From: Vulcanimicrobiota bacterium
GTDB taxonomy: Bacteria; Vulcanimicrobiota; Vulcanimicrobiia; Vulcanimicrobiales; Vulcanimicrobiaceae
DNA: 64,000 nucleotides
Assembly (NCBI GenBank): GCA_963733295.1
Contig: CAVTCS010000015.1
Location: 1,038-65,037, forward strand
Reading direction: 5' to 3'
Positions 6,560 to 55,545 of the stretch are shown here, in pieces. The notes below the pieces were generated by a model. The model had not been told where the DNA came from and did no database searches. It worked only from the letters and a program-made list of their open reading frames with translations. The position numbers were made by a program, and so were the translations under genes. Positions within the stretch are counted from its first letter, which is position 1. Every line of letters begins with the position of its first letter.

Positions 6560-7567
6560 GTGAACCGCCGCCCGAACTCGGCGGCAATTCTGCGCGCGGT
6601 TCCGGGTGCCGGCACAACGCACATCGCCTCGATCGACGGGCTCCGTGCCGTAGCGGTTCTCGGAGTCGTCGCTTATCACGCGAACTTTTTGCCCGGAACG
6701 ATCGGGGCGCGCGGCGTCGATCTGTTCTTCGTTATCTCCGGTCTCTGCCTGTCGCTGCCCGTGCTGCGCAAGGGCGAGGAGCTGCAACGCACGCGTTTTT
6801 GGATCAATCGGGTTTGGCGAATCGTACCCGCATATTGGGTAGCTCTTCTGATTTTTGGCGCCCTGTCGCTGACGGCGTTCGGGTTGCCGACCGCTGAGAC
6901 GCCAAAGCGCTCGTTCGAGTTCCTGCAAGAAGCGCTCTTCTCCACCGGCTTCACGCCTCCATATAACGGGTCGTTTTGGACGCTCCAGTTCGAGGCGCAT
7001 TGGTACGTCTTCTTCCCGTTTATCCTTGCGCTTTTTATGAAGAGCCGCGCGCTGTTTTTCGGGCTGCTGATCGGACTCTATCTCTGGTATTTGTCCCCGA
7101 TCCGCGTTCCCGATGCCGGCATGCTGCCGTGTTTCATGTTGGGGATCCTCGCCGCCGATCTGTACCTTCGCGGATTGACCCGTTCGAGGATGTTGCTCGG
7201 ACTTGCGGCGCTTTTCCTCACGCTCGCGGTCGCCTTTCGAAGCACTAGCGACGATCACGGCGATCCCTTGTGGCACATCGCCGCGTTCTGCGTTGTCCTA
7301 GCCGGGCTAGGAGTCGCGTCGAAAGCGCTTTCGTGGGCTCCGCTGGCCTTCATCGGCGTGGCCTCGTATAGCATCTATCTCGTTCACGGACCCATTCTCG
7401 CCTGGATGCACGACAAGCTCGGCCTGCCGATGATCGCGGCGGCGCTCGCGTCGGTCGTTGCCGGCATCGCGTTTTGGGCCTGCGTCGAGCACCCGATGTC
7501 GAAGCCGGCCTTTCGCAACGCGGTGGGTGCGCTGCTTCCGAGACGTAGCAAGCCCGAAGTCACTTAG
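6560..7567 (+). CDS. Acyltransferase family 3 (OafA/YrhL-like) membrane protein
   Basis: 335 aa. Contains IDGLRAVAVLGVVAYHA...GVDLFFVISG, characteristic of acyltransferase_3, and about 10 TM helices. Confidence 0.8.
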   Translation: MNRRPNSAAILRAVPGAGTTHIASIDGLRAVAVLGVVAYHANFLPGTIGARGVDLFFVISGLCLSLPVLRKGEELQRTRFWINRVWRIVPAYWVALLIFGALSLTAFGLPTAETPKRSFEFLQEALFSTGFTPPYNGSFWTLQFEAHWYVFFPFILALFMKSRALFFGLLIGLYLWYLSPIRVPDAGMLPCFMLGILAADLYLRGLTRSRMLLGLAALFLTLAVAFRSTSDDHGDPLWHIAAFCVVLAGLGVASKALSWAPLAFIGVASYSIYLVHGPILAWMHDKLGLPMIAAALASVVAGIAFWACVEHPMSKPAFRNAVGALLPRRSKPEVT

Positions 7568-8970
7568 TCGCGGCGAGACGGCGTCGCGCCAGTACGGCAA
7601 ACCCGATGGCGGCGACGAGCAGTAGGATCAAGATCGCGCGTTCGACCAGGAAGAACGGCGTGTATTCGAATTCCAGCGTCAACGCATAGTCGATTGCGGG
7701 CCACGAGATCAGAAACGGAATCGGACTCGCGGAACCCGAGGAGTACGTAGGGCAAGCTCCATGCGAGGTATTGCGACAGCGGGTATTGTCCGAGGCTCGG
7801 GAACGACCAGCCGACGCCGACCGAGAAGCGCTGGCGCCACAGTGCGAGCCCGACGGCCGCGACCGCAACGATGCAGAGCGTGAGATGCAGTGCCTGCTGA
7901 AGGAGCGGCGGAGCATGATCGTACCCGGCATACACTTGCCCGAGCGCATCGAAGTACTGCTTCCCGCCGAACGCGAGCGATGCTGCGAGCCACAGCGCCC
8001 CAGCCGACAACGAGGGCCAGAGCCGCTCTTTCAGACTTGGCCTGTCCCAGAACACGACGATGCCGCTGAGGATTAACGGCAATTTGATCGTTCCCGCCGC
8101 GGCAACGAGAAGTATCGCGAGCCAGACGTGCCGCCGCACGACGTAGGCCAGCAAGATGAACGCAACGCCGGTCAGATCGTTGTGCGCTCGAATCAAATAG
8201 CGGCCGTACAGGGCGGGGTTGAGCGCGAACAGGATCGTCGCGACCGAAGGACCGAGCACCCGATAGACGCAGAAAGTGCAAGTCGCGATCGCGGCCAATC
8301 CGAGGAGTCGCATTGCGAGCACTTGTTGCCAAAGCGAATGCGTCATGGCGACCGCACCGGCCGCGATGATGCTCCAGAGCGGTCCGTACGGCGAGGGCAA
8401 AAGCGGCGTGCCCCAGATCGAGTTGATGATCGAGTCGTCTCCGGGTAGCCGAACGGCGAGCGGCGCATACTGGTGCGGCCAGTCGAGCGCATGGGCGATG
8501 TAGAAATAGAGATCGACGCTCGTCGTCAACGAGCGCAAAGCGACGGCCGCCAAGCAGGCCGCGGTGAGGAGCGTTATGATAACAACGCCCAGCCGCCGGC
8601 AATCGGCACGGCGCATGACTCCGAAGATCGCCAAGAGCACCAAACTCTGAACCACCGATAAGGCTTGAGCCCATTCGACGAGCGAACGGTTTGCGGTCGC
8701 GCTGAACGGCGGATCCGGCGCGAAGAATTTCAAGGGTAGCGCCGAGTCAAACCAGTCGGGCACTAGCGCTTGATGAAGCACGGCCCGGTCGGTCACAGCG
8801 GTCTGCAGCGCGAACGTCACGCAAAGTGCGACGCACAGGGCGGCAAAGAGTACCGTGTCGCGCGGCCCTACACGCAATCCAGCCCGCGCCGGCGCGTCCG
8901 CGAACGAGCGGCCGCTGAAAAGCGAGAGCCCAAGCGCAAGTATCGCTAGGATGTAGTAGGGAGCAACCAC
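7560..8970 (-). pseudogene. Large polytopic membrane protein (possible GT-C/DUF2029-like glycosyltransferase) with an apparent frameshift near 7735..7750
   Basis: The 468-aa frame turns Arg-rich and non-membrane-like after ...LAWSLPYVLLG. The overlapping frame (ORF 7560..7949) continues with a convincing membrane C-terminus, SASPIPFLISWPAIDYALTLEFEYTPFFLVERAILILLLVAAIGFAVLARRRLAATK. Confidence 0.5.
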
Positions 8971-48111: not shown

Positions 48112-48291
48112 ATGTCGATAGTTCAAGGGTACTGCGTTCCGTGCAAAGCGAACCGCGAGTTGAGCGATACCAAAGAGATCGAACGGAGCGGACTCCCGGC
48201 CGTCGAGGGCAAGTGCGCGGTCTGCGGCAACAGAGTCTTCGCCCTGGGCGTCCGAGCGCAGGCGCCGGCGAACGAAACGACCGACCCTTAG
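48112..48291 (+). CDS. Small zinc-ribbon protein (DUF5679-like)
   Basis: 59 aa from ATG 48112: MSIVQGYCVPCKANRELSDTKEIERSGLPAVEGKCAVCGNRVFALG, with two CxxC pairs. Confidence 0.55.
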   Translation: MSIVQGYCVPCKANRELSDTKEIERSGLPAVEGKCAVCGNRVFALGVRAQAPANETTDP

Positions 48292-48575
48292 CTTTCGCTA
48301 GCCTTCACGTGCTCGAAGGCGGCTCGGACCGCTTCTTTGAGCTGCGCCAAGTGCGTTTCGAGCGGGACGCCGGGGTCATGCAACGACCGCCCGTTTTCCT
48401 CGACCATCGAGGCGAGGTCGTCGAGGTCTTGGGCCGTGATCGCGCCCATCATGACGAGCGGGATAACGCTCGAGATCCCTTCGCGCGCAGCCATTGCTCC
48501 GGGCGGATCGGTTATGACCAGCCAATCGGTGGCAGAGCGCAGCGCTTCCTTCGCTTCGCGTTCGGTCAGCGGCAT
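48288..48575 (-). CDS. Hypothetical protein (95 aa), last gene of the orphan operon
   Basis: Well-composed ORF 4 nt downstream of the preceding gene. No family recognised. Confidence 0.5.
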   Translation of the reverse strand: MPLTEREAKEALRSATDWLVITDPPGAMAAREGISSVIPLVMMGAITAQDLDDLASMVEENGRSLHDPGVPLETHLAQLKEAVRAAFEHVKASES

Positions 48576-48579
48576 GACG

Positions 48580-49038
48580 TCATTCCCCCTCTTGCGGCTC
48601 CGGCGCCTCGGCCGGTGCGGGCACGTGCTGAATCCACATCGGAAAGTATGCCAGCATGTCGTCTTGGTTGGCCATGAATCTGATGACGTACCCGCCTGGG
48701 TACGGCCAGGACAAGCCGTTGAAGCTGATCACGTTCCGTGAAATCGGCTCCTTCGGAGTGAACGTCAGGTCTTTCACCCGCTGCTGCGCGATGAGCTCGC
48801 CCTTCGCGTCTTCAACCACGACGCGGCAATTCGCAATCGTCTGCGCGCTCTCGCTGAAGAAACAGAATATCGCAAACCAGCGCCCCGTCGGCGCCGGAAA
48901 ATCGGCGGCCGCGATCCCGTCCATGACGTTTTGGAACGTAACCGCGCCGCCTGGTTTGCCCTCGATGTTTTCGCAGGCGAACGCCATCTGGGTTCTTAGC
49001 GTGTCCACGTGCCGGAGATACGGGTCCGGGCGGCGCAA
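48580..49038 (-). CDS. Hypothetical protein (135-152 aa), orphan operon
   Basis: Well-composed ORF (MAFACENIEGKPGGAVTFQNVMDGIAAADFPAPTGRWFAIFCFF...). Start is TTG 49038 or ATG about 48987. No family confidently recognised. Confidence 0.5.
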   Translation of the reverse strand: MRRPDPYLRHVDTLRTQMAFACENIEGKPGGAVTFQNVMDGIAAADFPAPTGRWFAIFCFFSESAQTIANCRVVVEDAKGELIAQQRVKDLTFTPKEPISRNVISFNGLSWPYPGGYVIRFMANQDDMLAYFPMWIQHVPAPAEAPEPQEGE

Positions 49039-49053
49039 GCCCTGGGCCGCGCG

Positions 49054-49986
49054 TCACCCGAAGCGCAACAGCGAGTGGATCTCCGGGTAGCCCTCGTCGT
49101 CGGCGATGTCGAAGTGCATCATGGCGCCGTTCCCGGAGCTCCCGTCCGCCTCCGTTTCGAGATCGCACGCGCCCCAGCGAAGACCGTTGTCGCACAAGGC
49201 CGTCGCGATTTCACTTCGCAGGTGCAGAAATCCGCGCGCCGGATTGCGCGTCCGCGAAGCCGCGGCGCTCGAGTCGATCTTTGCGGGAATCCTGACGTGC
49301 TCGTAGTCGCGCAGGATGCGCAGGTACTGCACGCGCGAGTTGTTCGACCAACCCGGATGGCTCGCCCCAAAGTCGCGACTGCTCAGATGTCCTTCGAGTC
49401 GAGCCAGCGCGGCGTTCAAGGGCAGACGCTCCGTCTCGGGGATCGCCGCCAGCAGTTCTTCATCCGAGAGCTCGTCGACGTTCGGGATCGCGACTCGCGA
49501 CACTTCGGACGCCCGAGCATCGACCGCGAAGCTCAAGTACGTTGCCAGAGCGTCGGAAACGGCTTTGAATCGCGTCCATACGGACAGGGTCGTTTCGTTC
49601 GGTTGCCGGCTGCGGACGTCGGCGGCGGCGAGAGACGGCGTCATAAACTGCATCGCCCGGTCGTAGACGGCGAGCGCGGCTCCGCGCGTCCCGATGTGCA
49701 GATTCACCGCCGGGCTAAGGTCGATGGCCGATCCGGCGGAGTGATGACCTGCGTGCGGTCGCCAGCAAACGTGGGGTTCGAAGGCCCCGGCCCACTGGGA
49801 AAACGTTGCGTTCCCCTGTCCGGTCCACGGATCGATGCGCCGCGCAGGCTCCAGCGCATCGTAGATCGCTCGTACGGTGCTGTCGGCGCTTTGCAGTCGC
49901 TCCCGCATCGCCGGATTTACACCGGCCGTCGGGGCGACTCCGCACGCCTGGCCGAGAAACTGCGTGGCGATGAGAAACGAAGGCAT
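49054..49986 (-). CDS. Hypothetical protein with LAS/M15-type zinc-peptidase motifs
   Basis: 310 aa. PHAGHHSAGSAIDL resembles the SxHxxGxAxD motif, and the C-terminal GLRWGACDL...GAMMHFD resembles the WGG...D.MHF motif of VanY/M15 peptidases. About 200 aa separate the two. High third-position GC supports coding. Confidence 0.55.
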   Translation of the reverse strand: MPSFLIATQFLGQACGVAPTAGVNPAMRERLQSADSTVRAIYDALEPARRIDPWTGQGNATFSQWAGAFEPHVCWRPHAGHHSAGSAIDLSPAVNLHIGTRGAALAVYDRAMQFMTPSLAAADVRSRQPNETTLSVWTRFKAVSDALATYLSFAVDARASEVSRVAIPNVDELSDEELLAAIPETERLPLNAALARLEGHLSSRDFGASHPGWSNNSRVQYLRILRDYEHVRIPAKIDSSAAASRTRNPARGFLHLRSEIATALCDNGLRWGACDLETEADGSSGNGAMMHFDIADDEGYPEIHSLLRFG

Positions 49987-50018
49987 AGAGAGTTACTTGC
50001 GCGACGGAGCGATACGGT

Positions 50019-50564
50019 TCATTCCGGCGGTGCGACGATGTCGTCGAGCACGATCGTCGCGGAACCGGCATTCGCCCGCGGTTCAGATTGCGCCCGACGG
50101 TCCTCGGCAACGCGACGGCGATCGCGCGCATCGACTCGCGAGCGCAAGAAGAGCGGACGATCGAGATCCGGCGCCGGGTCCCCATCCGCTTTTTGCATCC
50201 ACCCGATGCGAAAAAGCACGGTGTCCCCCTCGACGCTCGCGGCTCGCGGAAGCGAGGGCTCGGGATAGGGAGGCCCCGGACCTTCCCACGCAAACCAGGC
50301 GGTCATGAACCAGGCGTAATCCGGAACGTTCAGATTCCACTCTACGCCCGGATAGAAGGTGCGGAACATCGGCGAAGCCGCGCGTTCCGCTTCTCGCTTG
50401 TTGAGTTGCATGCGCCAGTTCAAGCGGCCCCATTCGGCTGGATACTTGTCGACGCTCTGAAAAAAGCGCGTCGGCACCGCGCTCTCGAGTTCGACTCCAT
50501 CGATGAGGAGCGCTCCGTCGCCGGGCCAGCGCCAGAAGCCGGGCGGCGCCTGTTCCGGCCGCAT
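50019..50564 (-). CDS. Hypothetical Trp-rich protein (181 aa), orphan operon
   Basis: The C-terminal 181 codons of listed ORF 50019..50885, from ATG 50564, are protein-like (FWRWPGDGALLIDGVELES...YAWFMTAWFAWEGPGPPYPE). The upstream part is Arg-rich and overlaps the Cys-rich micro-ORF. Confidence 0.45.
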   Translation of the reverse strand: MRPEQAPPGFWRWPGDGALLIDGVELESAVPTRFFQSVDKYPAEWGRLNWRMQLNKREAERAASPMFRTFYPGVEWNLNVPDYAWFMTAWFAWEGPGPPYPEPSLPRAASVEGDTVLFRIGWMQKADGDPAPDLDRPLFLRSRVDARDRRRVAEDRRAQSEPRANAGSATIVLDDIVAPPE

Positions 50565-50584
50565 CGAGCAGCGTCCGGGCTTCA

Positions 50585-50758
50585 CTAGGTCCCGAGGGGC
50601 CGGCAGTCGCAGCAGTCTTCGCAGAGGTTGCAGCCCATGTGCAAGGGATCGGCTTTGACGCCGCACTTCGCGCAGATGATCACCTCGTCTACTTGCGCGT
50701 CGGGCTCTCGCGGCGGCGTTCGTTCTTGCGAAGACGAGAAGCGTAAAATATTGTCCAT
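50585..50758 (-). CDS. Unlisted 57-aa Cys-rich micro-protein
   Basis: Codon-by-codon translation gives MDNILRFSSSQERTPPREPDAQVDEVIICAKCGVKADPLHMGCNLCEDCCDCRPLGT (7 Cys in the last 29 residues). GGGGGAG lies 5 nt upstream of the ATG. It sits between two operon genes with 14- and 20-nt gaps. Confidence 0.55.
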   Translation of the reverse strand: MDNILRFSSSQERTPPREPDAQVDEVIICAKCGVKADPLHMGCNLCEDCCDCRPLGT

Positions 50759-50772
50759 TTGCTCTCCCCCGT

Positions 50773-51066
50773 TCAGCGGCGAATGGGTCCGAACCCGAGA
50801 TTGGGGAGGACGTCTTCAACGAACGCCTGCGGTCCCGATGCAACGATGTGCCGCTTGAGTGCCAGCAAGGCTTGCTTGTCGTCAAACGAAACCGGTTCCG
50901 AGTTCAGGATATCTGACCCAAGCATGACGACCGAGTTCGAGTCGCGCCAGACGTGGCCGCAGGCTTCACGCAAGCCCTCCGGCGTGAGGATGCCGTCCGC
51001 AGCCGCAGGGTAGCGGGCGGCCCCTGCCGCCGAACCTTGAGCCTCGCGAGCCTCGTTCCGATCCAT
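50773..51066 (-). CDS. Hypothetical protein (97-105 aa), first gene of the orphan operon
   Basis: Well-composed ORF (MDRNEAREAQGS...DDKQALLALKRHIVASGPQAFVEDVLPNLGF). Start is ATG 51066 or GTG 51090. A 7-bp-stem palindrome (51092..51109) lies just upstream. Confidence 0.45.
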   Translation of the reverse strand: MDRNEAREAQGSAAGAARYPAAADGILTPEGLREACGHVWRDSNSVVMLGSDILNSEPVSFDDKQALLALKRHIVASGPQAFVEDVLPNLGFGPIRR

Positions 51067-51191
51067 CGTCAAGCGGCGTACCACACGCACCGCCGATAAG
51101 CCTATCGGCCTCCGCGATTAGCGGCGCGGGACTTGGCAACGAGACCTCGGCCGAGATAGACTCTCATCCACGGGAAACGGAGTAGGCCGCA

Positions 51192-51344
51192 TTGGTAAGC
51201 ACGATCCTGGTCTTTGTTTTCGCGGGTGCGTGCCTCGCGACGTTCGCTTGCGGCGTCCGCGAGGAATGGAAGAACGCGCGGGTGATATCGGCCTCGGTGG
51301 CCGTTCTTGCTTTCCTGTTGGCGCTTGCATCAACGGTCAAGTAG
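51192..51344 (+). CDS. Possible 50-aa two-helix membrane micro-protein
   Basis: My own translation from TTG 51192 gives LVSTILVFVFAGACLATFACGVREEWKNARVISASVAVLAFLLALASTVK. The SD is weak. It competes with listed antisense ORF 51118..51333, which is Arg/Pro-rich. Confidence 0.2.
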   Translation: MVSTILVFVFAGACLATFACGVREEWKNARVISASVAVLAFLLALASTVK

Positions 51345-51361
51345 CGCTCCGGCTTCGCTCG

Positions 51362-51592
51362 CTATCCTCCCGACAAAATCGTCACAAGTTCCAGATGGCA
51401 GCGCGGGCAAAGTTCGATGACTCCGCGCCGCGTCTGCCGCTGGGCCCAGCGGTGGGCGCGGACGCCCGCTTTAGCCTCGGCGCGGCCGCAATGCAACCGA
51501 GCGCACTGAATCTGTTCGCCCTCGGCGAGGGGCGTGCTCATTCCGAGTGGGACATAGACTCCTACGATTTCCTCATCGCTCAAGCGTTTCAT
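51362..51592 (-). CDS. Small zinc-ribbon-like protein (76 aa)
   Basis: From ATG 51592 (GGTGG 5 nt upstream): MKRLSDEEIVGVYVPLGMSTPLAEGEQIQCARLHCGRAE...VIELCPRCHLELV, with a CxxxxC ... CxxC pattern. Confidence 0.45.
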   Translation of the reverse strand: MKRLSDEEIVGVYVPLGMSTPLAEGEQIQCARLHCGRAEAKAGVRAHRWAQRQTRRGVIELCPRCHLELVTILSGG

Positions 51593-51630
51593 AGACACCA
51601 CCTGTCCGAACGGATAATTGGAGGCAAACA

Positions 51631-51840
51631 ATGGCTGACACCCGCCTAGGTGAGATCGCGCGCAAGCTCGTGCCGCTGCTCAACGAATTCAAAGCGGAGG
51701 CGAGCGACGTGATGGAAGAGGACGGGCGGCGCGATGCGGTCATCTTGAAGGATTACATGATGCGTAAATACCCTCGCATCGTCATCTTCCTTGCGTGCGC
51801 GGATACGCTTGGCGAGTTGGCCGAAAACGCCCCCGGCTGA
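51631..51840 (+). CDS. Hypothetical small protein (69 aa)
   Basis: ATG preceded by GGAGG at 6 nt. Balanced composition. Divergent from the 76-aa gene, with only 38 nt between the two starts. Confidence 0.45.
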   Translation: MADTRLGEIARKLVPLLNEFKAEASDVMEEDGRRDAVILKDYMMRKYPRIVIFLACADTLGELAENAPG

Positions 51841-51859
51841 AGGCTGCCCTTAAGGGCGT

Positions 51860-52114
51860 CTACGGCGGAAAGACGACCGAGTGCGGCGGGACGCGGCGAC
51901 GAACGATGTCGATGGCCTTCCCGCTGTCCGACATCTGCTCTTTGAGCTCGACGAGCGCCGCTTCGACGAGCGCCGCCGTTTTGACGCGGTAGCCGATTGC
52001 CTTGAGGATGACGACGATCTCGTCCAGCGTTTCGACTGAGACCGGGGTCAGCGCCACGGTCGGGGAGCTAGCGGCTTTCCCAGGAGGTCCCGCGGGCGCG
52101 TGATCGTGTGCCAT
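51860..52114 (-). CDS. Small protein with ribbon-helix-helix-like segment (84 aa)
   Basis: AGGAG 5 nt upstream of the ATG. VSVETLDEIVVILKAIGYRVKTAALVEAALVEL resembles a CopG/RHH beta-alpha-alpha unit. This is tentative. Confidence 0.4.
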   Translation of the reverse strand: MAHDHAPAGPPGKAASSPTVALTPVSVETLDEIVVILKAIGYRVKTAALVEAALVELKEQMSDSGKAIDIVRRRVPPHSVVFPP

Positions 52115-52134
52115 TTAAACTCCTAGAACCGCGT

Positions 52135-52404
52135 TCAACGCATCTCCGGATCGCCGTTCGCGCTTATCATATCGCTGTGACTGCCGTTGCTGCGCTGGCG
52201 CTCCTGCTGCTGCCGTTCGAACCGTTCGATGATTATCCGGCGGCGGAGCTCTTCGATCTCACCGCCCGTCAGCGTGCGACGACCGGCGCCGCCGTGGGCC
52301 GCTTCGGAGTGGTCGCAGACTTCGCAGCGCGCCGGATTCGTGCTCCGGTGCGATTCTAGCTCCGTAAACTGCTCGCAAGGACCTAAACTGCTGTCGGGCG
52401 TCAC
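52135..52404 (-). CDS. Small Cys/His-containing protein (89 aa) translationally coupled to bcp
   Basis: The GTG at 52404 overlaps the bcp TGA (GTGA). Sequence is ...GPCEQFTELESHRSTNPARCEVCDHSEAAHGG...EIEELRRRIIIERFERQQQE. The listed ATG at 52458 would overlap bcp by 58 nt. Confidence 0.4.
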   Translation of the reverse strand: MTPDSSLGPCEQFTELESHRSTNPARCEVCDHSEAAHGGAGRRTLTGGEIEELRRRIIIERFERQQQERQRSNGSHSDMISANGDPEMR

Positions 52405-52868
52405 GGGAGAATCTTGAGGACCTCGACGGCGTGGTCCAGTACGGTCACTTTGGGCCAAACGTGAATGAGCTTTCCCATCCGGTCGAAGAGAAAAGTCGAT
52501 CGTTGTATCGCGTTCTTACCGTAGATGTTCTCCGGAACGATGACGCCGAACGCGTCGCACAAGAGCGAGTCCGTGTCGGCTAGAAGCCTGAACGGTATCA
52601 GATACTTTTCTTTGAAGAGGCGATGCGACTCGACCGAATCGCGGCTGACGCCGACGAGTTCGGTTTCCTTGCGCTTGAAGTGTTCGTACTCTTCGCGAAA
52701 CTGCGTCGCTTCTTTGGTGCAGCCCCACGTGTCGTCCTTAGGATAAAAGTACAGCACGAGCTGTCTGCCCAGCAGATCTTGCGTCGAAACCTCGGCTCCG
52801 GTATCGTCGCGCACCGTGATCGAGGGCAGGCTGGCACCTGGTTCAAGCATCTCGCCGAGTTCGCGCAT
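52401..52868 (-). CDS. bcp: Thioredoxin-dependent thiol peroxidase (peroxiredoxin Bcp)
   Basis: 155 aa with LVLYFYPKDDTWGCTKEA (peroxidatic Cys motif). Confidence 0.9.
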   Translation of the reverse strand: MRELGEMLEPGASLPSITVRDDTGAEVSTQDLLGRQLVLYFYPKDDTWGCTKEATQFREEYEHFKRKETELVGVSRDSVESHRLFKEKYLIPFRLLADTDSLLCDAFGVIVPENIYGKNAIQRSTFLFDRMGKLIHVWPKVTVLDHAVEVLKILP

Positions 52869-53923
52869 TACGGAGCCTTTTCCTCAATGAGGTTGGCGAT
52901 CGCCATGGCCGTGGCGGGCGCCAACAAGATCGCGTTGCGGTAGTGTCCGGCAGCCACGAAGTAACCGTCGAGCTCCGTTCCCCCGATGAACGGGCGACCG
53001 TCCGGGGAACGCGGTCGCAGGCCGGCCCACGTCTCGTCGACCGCGAGCTCGCCGAGCGCGGGAATCGCGCGTACGGCAGCTTCGCGCAAACGCTCCGTCG
53101 CCGCCGGTTCGATGTCGACGTCGAATCCCGCGTCCTCGACGGTTTCGCCGATCAACACGCTTCCGTCGGTTCGCGGGATGACGTAAACCCCGGGAGCGGA
53201 CACCTGCCGTTTCAGCAACGGGCCCGGCAGCATGAACGAGAGCAGCTGACCCTTGACCGGCACGATCGGAATGCGCACGTGGGGCGGTACGCCTCTCAAT
53301 TGCCCGGCCCAGGCGCCGGCTGCGTTGACGACCGTTTCCGCGGCTACAAAATTCTCGCCCGCGCGCACTCCGCGAACTTTCTCGTCCGCCTCGAGAGCGA
53401 CGGGTCCCGTTTGCTCCTCGAGACGCACCCCGACGTCGACGCACGCCGCGCGCAAAGCGCGCCCAAGGTAACGCGTATCGATCTGGCCCTCGTCTTCAAC
53501 GAGAGAAGCGCCGGCGGTCGCCGGTCCGAGCGAAGGCTCGAGGCCGCGCGCTTCGTCGGGTTCGAACCAGTGCGCGTGGATCCCGCGGGCGACGAGCGCC
53601 TCGGCCCGTTCGCGCAAACGAACCGCGTCGAACTCGTCGAGCGCGACCTGAATGATTCCGTCGACGCGCATGCACGGGTCGATGCCCGTGCGCTTGTGTA
53701 ATTCCTTGACGAAAACTTGGTACGTACCGAGCGCTCCGGCCAAGAACTCTTCTTGTTCCGCGCCGCCTTCGGAGTCGCTGAACGGCGCAAGTCTTCCGGC
53801 GCCGGACCACGAGGACGGCCCCGATGAATCGAAGGCCTCGACGACGCGAACTTCGGCTCCGCGTTTTGCAAGCTCGTACGCAATGCTGAGACCGATAAGT
53901 CCCGCGCCGATGATGACGACCAT
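52868..53923 (-). CDS. FAD-dependent glycine/D-amino-acid oxidase (ThiO-like)
   Basis: 351 aa from ATG 53923. Begins MVVIIGAGLIGLSIAYELAKRGAEVRVVE and ends in GHYRNAILLAPATA, typical of the ThiO/DAO family. Its stop overlaps the bcp start by 1 nt. The upstream part of the listed 513-aa ORF is Arg-rich. Confidence 0.78.
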   Translation of the reverse strand: MVVIIGAGLIGLSIAYELAKRGAEVRVVEAFDSSGPSSWSGAGRLAPFSDSEGGAEQEEFLAGALGTYQVFVKELHKRTGIDPCMRVDGIIQVALDEFDAVRLRERAEALVARGIHAHWFEPDEARGLEPSLGPATAGASLVEDEGQIDTRYLGRALRAACVDVGVRLEEQTGPVALEADEKVRGVRAGENFVAAETVVNAAGAWAGQLRGVPPHVRIPIVPVKGQLLSFMLPGPLLKRQVSAPGVYVIPRTDGSVLIGETVEDAGFDVDIEPAATERLREAAVRAIPALGELAVDETWAGLRPRSPDGRPFIGGTELDGYFVAAGHYRNAILLAPATAMAIANLIEEKAP

Positions 53924-54216
53924 TCGCGCCCGTTCGCGAAGCGAACCGTTCCCACATCCGCGCGCTCTGCTTGCGCCAAGAAGTCCGAGAAGGCGGACGT
54001 TTGGGCCGGCACGGCCGGCCTTGCGTTTCGCGACGAAATTCGTTTCCGGGGCGAGGTCGATACCGGCCGGGGTGGAAGTTTCACCATCCCAATTAAGGAA
54101 AAACTTTAGAGAGTGACTCCCGGGAAAGCACCGCAGAGTACGCGAGACCGTCGCGCCGAGCCCGTCGGCCGGCCCCCGCGTGCCACGGCCGGCTCCCGAT
54201 CGGGTCAGATAGCCTC

Positions 54217-55545
54217 GTGATCCTTTTAAGGACGGGACTCCCCGCCGGGCAGGAACCTCGTGCCGATGCCGGGGTGACCGAAACCCGCGCCTGGGCGATC
54301 GACGACGTGCTCGATGCTGCGCTGACCACAACCGGCGCCGAGATCGCCGAGATTTTCCTTCGCGAGGGCGGCGTGACAAGCGTCTCCCTCGCGGGCTTTC
54401 GGGGCCCATTCCGCGAGGCGTTTTATCAGATCGCGCGCTTCGAGGAGGGACAAGGTTATCCGGGCCTCGTCATAGCGGGCGGTCGTCCGATCGCGGCTGC
54501 GGACGCTTTGAGTGACGGACGTTTCCTGCGAACGCTCGTCAAGGAACTTGGCTTTCGTTATTTCCTATGCGTACCGGTCCCCGGACCCGACCGACCGGTC
54601 GGGAGCCTCGGCGTGGCTTGGCGGCGCGGCTCGGACGCGCTCTTTTCGCACTGCGTGACGCTTTCGCGCGAAGCCGAGCGGCTCGCCTTGATGCTCGACC
54701 GTGAAGCGCGCGCGCACCGCTCCGCGAACGAAGTCCGCCTCGCACCCGGTCGCTTCGAGGAGACGGAACGGCTGCTCGAACTTCGGGTACTCGGGAGTTT
54801 CGAGGTGCGGCTCGGCGGGATTCCCCTGAGCATGGATTCCTTCGCGCGGCGGCGTGCCTTGACGCTGCTCAAGATTCTCCTGACCAACTACGGCAAAGTC
54901 GTCGCCCGCGACGAACTGATCGAGTTGCTTTGGCCCTCGGATGCTCCCAAGGACGCGGTCCAGTTGCTCAAGGGCGCGGTTCACTACTTGCGTCGCGGCC
55001 TCGGCGAGGTGCAGAGCGGAAAGCCCAAGACGTCCTTCATTCTGACTGAAGCAAACGGCTATGCCTTCAATCCCGCGTCCCTGCACCGCATCGACGCACT
55101 CGAGTTCAAGGCCCTCGCGGACGAAGGTCTTCGTTTCGAACGCCAAGGCCGCTGGCGTGAAGCGGTCGATGCGCTGCAGGGCGCAGCGCAGTTGTACGGC
55201 GGAGATTATCTCGAGGACGACCTCTACAGTGACTGGTGTTTGAAACAGCGCCGGCGCCTGCGGGAGACCCTTTTCGACGTCCTGCTGGCGGCCTCGCGTT
55301 TGCTGCGAAGCTCGGGAGACTACGAGGCGGCGATCCGTCTCTACCGCCGCATTCTCGAGCTGGACCCCTGCATGGAGGACGTGCACCGCGATTTCATGGA
55401 GGTGCTGTGCCGAAGCGGAAAGCGCACCCAGGCACTCCGCCAGTTCGAAGAGTGCCGCCGGGCGCTGCGGGAGGAATTCGACTCCAGCCCCACCCTCGAG
55501 ACCGAGGCGTTGTACCGGAGCATTCTGGGCCGCCTGAGTGGGTGA
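54217..55545 (+). CDS. Transcriptional regulator: GAF domain plus SARP-type winged-helix DNA-binding domain plus BTAD
   Basis: 442 aa. The N-terminal segment is GAF-like. LRVLGSFEVRLGGIPL...RRALTLLKILLTNYGKVVARDELIELLWP is the SARP/OmpR-type wHTH. The C-terminal helical BTAD contains DYEAAIRLYRRILELDPCMEDVHRDFMEVL. The start is uncertain. Confidence 0.75.
   Translation: MILLRTGLPAGQEPRADAGVTETRAWAIDDVLDAALTTTGAEIAEIFLREGGVTSVSLAGFRGPFREAFYQIARFEEGQGYPGLVIAGGRPIAAADALSDGRFLRTLVKELGFRYFLCVPVPGPDRPVGSLGVAWRRGSDALFSHCVTLSREAERLALMLDREARAHRSANEVRLAPGRFEETERLLELRVLGSFEVRLGGIPLSMDSFARRRALTLLKILLTNYGKVVARDELIELLWPSDAPKDAVQLLKGAVHYLRRGLGEVQSGKPKTSFILTEANGYAFNPASLHRIDALEFKALADEGLRFERQGRWREAVDALQGAAQLYGGDYLEDDLYSDWCLKQRRRLRETLFDVLLAASRLLRSSGDYEAAIRLYRRILELDPCMEDVHRDFMEVLCRSGKRTQALRQFEECRRALREEFDSSPTLETEALYRSILGRLSG

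Follow-up and report, generated by a model that had tools for sequence, protein, structure and literature searches.

A six-gene head-to-tail array in a Vulcanimicrobiota contig: probable species-specific order of family-restricted genes, one encoding a LAS/M15-like protein that appears to lack the catalytic acid

The DNA analysed here (the window) is a stretch of 64,000 nucleotides (nt) of contig CAVTCS010000015.1 from a Vulcanimicrobiota bacterium; positions are counted from its first base. Between moaA and thiO-bcp it carries a block of six short co-directional genes on the minus strand, designated A to F, which had been proposed from the sequence alone to form an accessory module or undescribed system, acting for example in toxin/immunity, defence or peptide maturation (the original prediction). 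The reading favoured by the present analysis, with a probability of about 0.55, is that the block consists of vertically inherited genes restricted to the Vulcanimicrobiaceae (Eremiobacterota), a family of soil bacteria not yet in culture, that their head-to-tail order is derived and species-specific, and that they do not represent a conserved or transferable system. A discrete module was not recognised because gene order varied among 13 genomes, D occurred alone outside the family, the housekeeping neighbours were retained equally well in a syntenic region of flat G+C, and x114, the usual partner of C, was absent. As judged from its motifs, D in the clade of the window is a variant of a LAS-like domain without the catalytic acid, and the other five genes are orphans or members of a domain of unknown function (DUF).

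Gene order in related genomes

The neighbourhood was compared at 17 loci from 13 related genomes, assigned by their record titles to the Eremiobacterota/Vulcanimicrobiaceae with the exception of one labelled 'Limnocylindria'. Four arrangements of order and orientation were found and designated W, R, T and U (Table 1), of which W, T and U were each backed by at least two independent assemblies. Two short or partial loci (L005 and L014) were consistent with R as far as they extend. The six-in-a-row co-directional order was found only in the window's own species. In arrangement R, D is convergent with B-A, E-F is located approximately 1.6-1.9 kb away past other genes, and C is located approximately 5 kb away beyond thiO-bcp.

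Table 1. Order and orientation of genes in the four arrangements. The symbols > and < give the direction of each gene.
Arrangement	Loci	Gene order
W	window and own species only, L001-L004	moaA> DUF5679> <F <E <D <C <B <A <g89m s69> <s84 <s89 <bcp <thiO SARP>
R	L006-L013, L015, L030, L033, L034	D> <B <A <g89m s69> <s84 E> F> <DUF5679 <s89 <bcp <thiO C> x114> SARP>
T	L031, L032	CusF-SCO1> <A <s84 <s89 <bcp <thiO F> D> <B <g89m s69> E> <DUF5679
U	L035, L036	moaA> <B <A <g89m s69> <s84 C> x114> F> D> <CusF-SCO1 moaD> moaE> E> <DUF5679 <s89 <bcp <thiO SARP>

Three blocks of genes were stable: B and A with g89m, s69 and s84; E, with or without F, and DUF5679; and s89-bcp-thiO. D, C and F relocated as single genes, and A, B and the mosaic of small genes formed a stable backbone relative to the moved C, D, E and F. 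Some partial clusters recurred. F follows E in W and R and directly precedes D in T (0-nt gap) and U (41-nt gap); in W and U, C has a position upstream of D, and U also shows C, x114, F and D packed tightly in one direction. The six genes were within approximately 10 kb of one another in most of the family genomes sampled, the exceptions being L031, in which C was not found, and L005, in which C, E and F were not found.

In a tree of five marker proteins (991 columns; neighbour-joining, midpoint-rooted, without support values), the window clustered with a single genome each of R, U and T, and every outgroup carried R. From this tree, the R order is ancestral, and the derived orders W, U and T arose by separate rearrangements. 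The locus resembles the shuffled conserved neighbourhoods described as 'uber-operons' in that about 15 genes are kept within 10-15 kb and individual genes or small blocks differ in order and orientation. It differs from them in consisting mostly of orphan genes, with no evident shared pathway to explain their retention. Co-occurrence in other genomes, which the original prediction had offered as a check, was borne out in one respect, since the genes share a neighbourhood within the family, but housekeeping genes share it too, and the association was not seen outside the family.

The block was not supported as a mobile or accessory island. G+C was flat (0.63-0.64) across the block and its flanks, only short chance repeats were detected at the block boundaries, and no Rfam family or tRNA was found in the window. 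The genes also stood at the same locus in all of the family genomes sampled, apart from the gaps at L031 and L005 noted above. Integrase, transposase and nuclease genes were also absent, as the original prediction had noted. The flat composition, together with the lack of such elements and of any PADLOC or PHROG match, argues against a foreign island, and the suggested defence-island setting was not upheld. Besides the genes already named, the neighbourhood contains moaDE, moeA, a molybdoenzyme, CusF-SCO1, cytochrome oxidase, hemA and a SARP regulator.

Coding evidence and reading frames

The six genes are real. Their G+C contents at third and second codon positions (GC3 0.72-0.80 and GC2 0.45-0.53) resembled those of hemA, moaA and bcp, and their ratios of nonsynonymous to synonymous substitution rates (dN/dS) against homologues in other genomes were 0.09-0.49, which is in the range of the neighbours bcp, thiO and moaA. 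The same six genes were predicted by gene callers on four independent metagenome assemblies with an identical locus (L001-L004), and homologues of all six were present in at least 13 related genomes. These data confirm that the six co-directional minus-strand open reading frames (ORFs) are protein-coding, as first proposed. They also bear out the Cys-rich micro-protein B, which the ORF track had not listed; it was predicted by the callers, is conserved and, as described below, is fused to A in three genomes.

The gaps between the genes had been described as only 4-32 nt. Every E homologue shares a start at the residues MAFACE, and E is therefore 135 amino acids (aa) long and separated from D by 66 nt rather than 15. 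The corrected intergenic gaps are 14 (A-B), 20 (B-C), 32 (C-D), 66 (D-E) and 4 nt (E-F). Homologue alignments and gene calls excluded both a 152-aa form of E beginning at TTG and a 288-aa TTG ORF overlapping B and C. Promoter-like and terminator-like sites inside the block did not exceed the shuffled expectation. All six proteins are acidic, and none contains a hydrophobic stretch fitting a signal peptide or membrane helix.

Profile databases (Pfam, NCBIfam, PHROGs and PADLOC) yielded nothing significant for the six window proteins; the sole PADLOC match was F against PDC-M02B (E = 0.019, 12 bits). The statement that none belongs to a recognisable family thus stood for the window sequences themselves but not at the level of their families, where D relatives matched Peptidase_M15_4 (29/31) and E relatives matched DUF6941 (9/11).

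D as a LAS/M15-like protein

At least 124 homologues of D were obtained by database search, of which the best 120 were listed and 31 were aligned. The LAS/M15-like zinc-ligand motifs pointed out previously in this 310-aa protein held up in the alignment: H82-x2-G85-x-A87-x-D89 and W271-G272-x2-D275 were invariant, and H291-F-D was nearly invariant. The HxxGxAxD motif was present in 115 of the 120 listed homologues, and the five exceptions were mostly short or truncated sequences. The LAS family is characterised by the pattern SxHxxGxAxD with a C-terminal His (PMC6354061). H291, in its HFD context, is inferred to be the third zinc ligand.

Twenty-nine of the 31 aligned members matched Peptidase_M15_4 at E <= 1, and four matched VanY; for P0050, P0063, P0085 and P0086 the Peptidase_M15_4 score was just over the 25-bit cut-off. 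These matches covered only positions ~5-29 of the 70 in the profile because an insertion of approximately 180 residues, largely helical, separates the two motif regions. D of the window itself gave no match and fell below every threshold. It lacks, as do P0010, P0019 and P0061, a segment of approximately 19 aa (NPYIVTRNGxVPGGEPG...MRNR) that follows the first zinc motif in most homologues (alignment columns ~188-217), and the absence of this segment accounts for the missing profile match.

The AlphaFold2 (AF2) model of D was confident, with a predicted local distance difference test score (pLDDT) of 90 and a predicted template modelling score (pTM) of 0.89. Foldseek searches of this model against PDB and BFVD returned no match at E <= 0.001, so that the LAS fold was not recovered, although the large insertion may defeat the search. 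PDB sequences searched with profiles of the D, E and F alignments yielded chance-level matches only. A signal peptide and a domain that binds the cell wall were absent from D, and its dN/dS of 0.15-0.26 indicated purifying selection. Compared with the LAS peptidases (MEROPS M15; Peptidase_M15_4 and VanY; Ply500, LysB4, Serratia ChiX and VanX), D shares HxxGxAxD, WGxxD and a C-terminal His in xxHF[DE]; it differs in the ~180-residue insertion, in having Ala in place of the catalytic Asp/Glu, and in the lack of a signal peptide and of a domain that binds the cell wall. On the basis of these motifs, D would be a divergent LAS/M15-like zinc-binding domain.

Loss of the catalytic acid

LAS peptidases have an Asp or Glu three residues ahead of the third zinc His, and this acid takes a proton from the zinc-bound water. 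The variants ChiX D120A and LysB4 D129A are inactive, with Asp130 in Ply500 and Glu181 in VanX as the corresponding residues (PMC5778951, PMC6354061). The position was surveyed in the Eremiobacterota-clade set of 84 D homologues (P0001-P0084, window protein included), in 80 of which the motif was found. The pattern NG[AKS]xxHF[DE] was present in 79 of these 80 sequences; its third residue was Ala in 76 of them, Lys in two and Ser in one. The remaining sequence, P0061, reads ECAVMTHFD. Asp or Glu thus occupied the catalytic-acid position in 0/80 clade sequences, the window protein carrying A288 (NGAMMHFD). Of the distant homologues (30-46% identity), 32 bore the motif, and every one of these reads GDxxHFD. 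The acid was therefore lost only in the Eremiobacterota clade, where the zinc ligands were kept. The Ala at the acid position, the retained zinc ligands and the purifying selection together suggest that D of the window is probably a zinc-binding but catalytically degenerate, domesticated copy retained for another role.

D homologues outside the family

Homologues of D are known in Actinomycetota, Acidobacteriota, Pseudomonadota, Myxococcota and a Methanotrichaceae archaeon. Several of the distant homologues carry an N-terminal eCIS_core domain (DUF4157), namely P0094, P0107, P0110, L017 (Solibacteraceae), L018 (Chromatiales), L019 (the Methanotrichaceae archaeon) and L022. In these fusions the D-type domain is C-terminal, with 30-41% identity. 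An N-terminal DUF4157 followed by a C-terminal toxin domain is the architecture of toxins associated with extracellular contractile injection systems (eCIS) (Geller et al. 2021, PMC8213781). Because the fusions match this architecture, the D-type domain is very probably a cell-wall-directed effector domain in the organisms that carry it behind eCIS_core. At the locus L027 (P0110), the D-homologue gene stands in a row with genes for an AAA ATPase and two eCIS_core proteins, one of them an eCIS_core-CHAP protein; at L028 (P0113), the D homologue has no eCIS_core itself and is near an eCIS_core-SH3_3 protein. The D homologue at L025 also contains a VanY domain, and only a C-terminal segment of D was matched. 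Stand-alone copies containing the Asp also exist.

The distant homologues and the eCIS-associated toxins have in common the C-terminal position behind eCIS_core. D of the window and all of its Eremiobacterota relatives differ from them in lacking eCIS_core and the catalytic acid and in occupying a fixed housekeeping locus. No eCIS structural genes were found among the called neighbours over approximately 12 kb of the window (moaA, CusF, hemA, thiO, bcp, the SARP regulator and small orphans). Relatives of A, B, C, E and F were absent from the 18 non-Eremiobacterota D loci (L025 included), of which L016-L029 were covered by tblastn and L037 and L038 were judged by gene tables only. Likewise, tblastn searches with D and a distant homologue against phage and plasmid collections returned no match.

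Two further observations were made at these loci. In a metagenome-assembled genome of the Methanotrichaceae archaeon, an 803-aa protein (L019:5573-7981) combines eCIS_core, Peptidase_M23 and a D-type LAS-like domain, a multi-hydrolase eCIS-type effector in a methanogen lineage. On two unrelated contigs, a D homologue that stands alone and contains the Asp has a divergently transcribed IclR-family regulator upstream of it, directly adjacent in L029 (Kribbella; 7061-8930) and with one gene between them in L037 (1044-4090).

The other five genes

A showed 59-82% aa identity across 13 genomes and a dN/dS of 0.09-0.24, and is an orphan, acidic, probably helical protein. In 3 of the 13 genomes (L009, L011 and L014), A and B are fused in frame as single ORFs of 131-137 aa. 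These fusions firmly establish A and B as the two halves of one split protein and as a functional pair. In an alignment of B, the C-terminal motif C-x2-C-G-x5-LH-x-G-C-x2-C-x2-CCDCRP was almost invariant, apart from one additional residue between the Gly and the next Cys in the L031 copy, and the N-terminal part was variable. The C-terminal part, a Cys7-His tail, is a probable metal-binding, zinc-ribbon-like domain. A Shine-Dalgarno-like sequence (GGGGGAG) lies 8 nt upstream of B. The sole family match of B was the sub-threshold NCBIfam entry PP0621 (E = 0.008), and, in Pfam, 59 proteins from the A, B, F, s69, s84, s89 and g89m families had single chance matches only.

C is a Trp-rich orphan with 121 homologues, every one of which comes from the Eremiobacterota clade. 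An exhaustive profile search of 1.84 billion representative proteins recovered six clusters, all of the C family, and no relatives outside the clade. Its AF2 model (pLDDT 77.5) was an all-beta sandwich (residues ~24-146) with a disordered C-terminal tail, and a Foldseek search of this model against PDB gave no match at E <= 0.001. In the relatives, C has thiO on one side and the SARP regulator on the other. The gene after it is x114, which encodes a conserved 114-aa orphan and is directly 3′ of C in arrangements R and U (0-nt gap in L035). No copy of x114 was present across the entire 64-kb window. A GIY-YIG-like motif had been suspected in x114 and was dropped, Pfam having given no support.

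The E family matched DUF6941 (PF22091) in nine of the 11 aligned members (best E = 1.2e-8), and many of its database homologues carry precomputed PF22091 annotations; the window copy alone was below threshold. By its sequence family, E can be assigned to DUF6941. In the library searched, there was no paper on DUF6941 and nothing relevant on DUF5679. At L035:9323-10432 (arrangement U), E is directly 3′ of moaD-moaE; the caller overlaps it with moaE, and the gap is 16 nt when measured from MAFACE.

F is an orphan acidic protein with 57-79% conservation that starts 4 nt after E, is preceded by the Shine-Dalgarno-like sequence GAGGGGGA, and had no Pfam or PDB sequence match. Its stop overlaps that of the convergent DUF5679 gene by 4 nt (48288-48291). 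DUF5679 forms the right-hand boundary of the E-(F)-DUF5679 block, which was conserved in all four arrangements. DUF5679 is probably co-transcribed with moaA, since its start is only 7 nt past the moaA stop.

Interpretation and alternative explanations

Under the favoured reading, of genes inherited vertically within the family, the neighbourhood would be syntenic but prone to rearrangement, and several local inversions and transpositions would have lined the six genes up in the species of the window, where the array may now be co-transcribed. A and B would act as one protein in two halves, a helical domain and a Cys7-His metal-binding tail; E (DUF6941) would usually be paired with F and bounded by DUF5679; and the putative beta-sandwich C would be without its usual partner x114 here. 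D would derive from a LAS/M15-type zinc peptidase domain that elsewhere stands alone, is joined to M23 or VanY, or forms the C-terminal cargo of eCIS_core. The 310-aa protein itself may be cytoplasmic and zinc-binding, recognising a ligand that resembles a D-amino acid or a peptidoglycan stem with poor or no hydrolysis. Its role could then be binding or regulatory, with F, and possibly C, as candidate partners, both having repeatedly landed directly upstream of it. Functional links between E and F, F and D, and C and D, and with them a smaller core around D, are plausible.

Several points weigh against this interpretation. The short gaps (4-66 nt) and the lack of an internal terminator give the block the look of an operon, and selection for co-expression could lie behind the fact that several independent rearrangements have produced a tidy co-directional array. 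The recurrent partial clusters (F-D, C-x114-F-D and E-F) might exceed what pure chance shuffling would produce, four arrangements being too few for statistics. The marker tree was built by neighbour joining, was rooted at its midpoint and carries no support values. For D, the case for a degenerate enzyme depends on a single motif position, and another residue could act as the base; in addition, Foldseek did not recover the LAS fold from the model.

One alternative is a genuine functional module in the making. All six proteins, or only C, D, E and F as its core, would cooperate, for example in sensing or remodelling of the envelope or of peptidoglycan precursors around D, and selection for co-expression would have gathered the genes into one operon in this species. 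We hold this alternative to be possible but on balance unlikely. The tight terminator-free packing, the proximity of the six genes in most of the family genomes sampled (L031 and L005 excepted), the adjacency of F and D in T and U and of E and F in W and R, and the position of C upstream of D in W and U are all in its favour, and the fusions of A with B prove that at least one functional pair is genuine. However, the ancestral R order, which is also the commonest, keeps D, E-F and C apart, the flanking housekeeping genes are retained equally, so that linkage is not specific to the six, D is found without the other five outside the family, and x114 is missing from the window. A related and more speculative proposal, to which we attach only a small probability, is that D of the window and its ~80 Vulcanimicrobiaceae orthologues are the domesticated, catalytically dead descendants of an undescribed LAS-like toxin domain, the active form of which is found in eCIS_core effectors of several phyla. 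The dead copy would have become a core gene, serving as a sensor that binds a ligand, as a decoy or immunity-like protein or as a scaffold, and would be assembling a new operon with F, C and E in this subclade. If so, the locus would offer a rare snapshot of operon birth from family-restricted genes.

Three further explanations draw on the surroundings of the block or on the distant relatives of D. The small Cys-rich or zinc-ribbon proteins, together with their neighbours, might act as accessory factors that mature or regulate respiratory metalloenzymes (molybdenum cofactor, copper, haem), as moaA/moaDE/moeA, CusF-SCO1, cytochrome oxidase, hemA and molybdoenzyme genes dominate the neighbourhood in all arrangements, DUF5679 starts just past moaA in the window, E lies directly behind moaD-moaE in U, and CxxC-type motifs are present in B, s89, g89m and DUF5679. 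This is guilt by association only, and the associations differ between arrangements; none of the six matched a known cofactor-maturation family, and we know of no role of a LAS-like domain in cofactor assembly. The explanation is accordingly considered improbable. A toxin-immunity or anti-phage island, with D as a cell-wall-degrading toxin and E, F or C as the immunity protein, or with the whole set acting in defence, would agree with the small adjacent ORFs, which are typical of immunity genes, and with the distant D homologues that are eCIS_core effector cargo beside other cell-wall hydrolase effectors (PMC8213781). It is very unlikely for the window, where D has no eCIS_core or other trafficking domain, no signal peptide and no catalytic acid, and its gene is present in one copy, is inherited vertically at a fixed locus and is under purifying selection as its housekeeping neighbours are; moreover, no partner is consistently adjacent to D, there was no shift in composition and no PADLOC or PHROG match, and D was not found in the phage and plasmid collections by tblastn. 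We find it harder still to credit a maturation cluster for a ribosomally synthesised and post-translationally modified peptide, in which the 57-aa B would be the Cys-rich precursor and D the leader peptidase. B is indeed short and Cys-rich, its N-terminal part is variable, and a peptidase-like gene is close by. Its fusion to the C-terminus of A, a 90-aa protein, in three genomes would be unexpected for a precursor; no maturase was recognised, the only radical-SAM gene encoding a genuine MoaA with Mob_synth_C; the catalytic acid is missing from D; and B and D are convergent in the ancestral arrangement.

With the six-gene cassette not holding up as an undescribed system, effort on phage-challenge and toxicity screens can be spared. 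The D family remains of interest as an uncharacterised LAS-like domain with a confident model that has no fold match in PDB or BFVD and is linked to eCIS effector architecture; it is plausibly a new cell-wall-targeting toxin domain, for which the Eremiobacterota clade would provide a natural 'D-to-A mutant' and an example of pseudo-enzyme domestication. The locus also documents unusually fine single-gene shuffling among related uncultured genomes, one outcome of which is an operon-like array, and its approximately ten strongly conserved orphan small proteins from a poorly known phylum are candidates for lineage-specific biology.

Flanking genes

The further mosaic of tiny genes reported beyond the block was also found, and its members g89m, s69, s84 and s89 were conserved in the family (Table 2).

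Table 2. Coordinates of the block, its genes and motifs, and other features. Positions refer to the window unless a locus is named.
Feature	Position	Strand	Description
Block	48288-51066 (51090 with the GTG start of A)	minus	six co-directional genes A-F
A	50773-51066	minus	97 aa from conserved ATG (MDR start); GTG at 51090, giving 105 aa, also possible
B	50585-50758	minus	57 aa, 7 Cys; micro-protein
C	50019-50564	minus	181 aa
D	49054-49986	minus	310 aa
H82-S-A-G-S-A-I-D89 of D	49720-49743	minus	HxxGxAxD zinc-ligand motif, from alignment
A288-M-M-H291 of D	49114-49125	minus	Ala at catalytic-acid position, three residues before the putative third zinc His
E	48580-48987	minus	135 aa from MAFACE start
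F	48288-48575	minus	95 aa
DUF5679	48112-48291	plus	zinc-ribbon gene; 59 aa, PF18930 annotation; 7 nt after moaA stop
Small-gene mosaic	51118-52404	both	family-specific, conserved; no Pfam matches
g89m	51362-51631	minus	zinc ribbon, C-x4-C ... C-x2-C
s69	51631-51840	plus	69-aa orphan, no Pfam family
s84	51860-52114	minus	small family-specific gene
s89	52135-52404	minus	C ... C-x2-C
x114	L035:6504-6848; L033:7302-7640; L010:13521-13859		conserved orphan gene

A resemblance of s84 to ribbon-helix-helix proteins, seen as a sequence pattern only, is not claimed, as Pfam gave it no support. The interval 51118-51347, between A and g89m, showed protein-level conservation by tblastx, with similar identities for the minus-strand g58m and the plus-strand g50p, and gene callers picked different ORFs in different assemblies. 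For thiO, the ORF list gives 513 aa (52868-54409, minus strand), and homologues and gene calls support a protein of 351 aa with its start at 53923. The s89 start and the bcp stop share 4 nt (ATGA), an overlap suggestive of translational coupling with thiO-bcp. Across the family, s69 showed 65-91% aa identity and a dN/dS of 0.06-0.11, and was more conserved than bcp and thiO.

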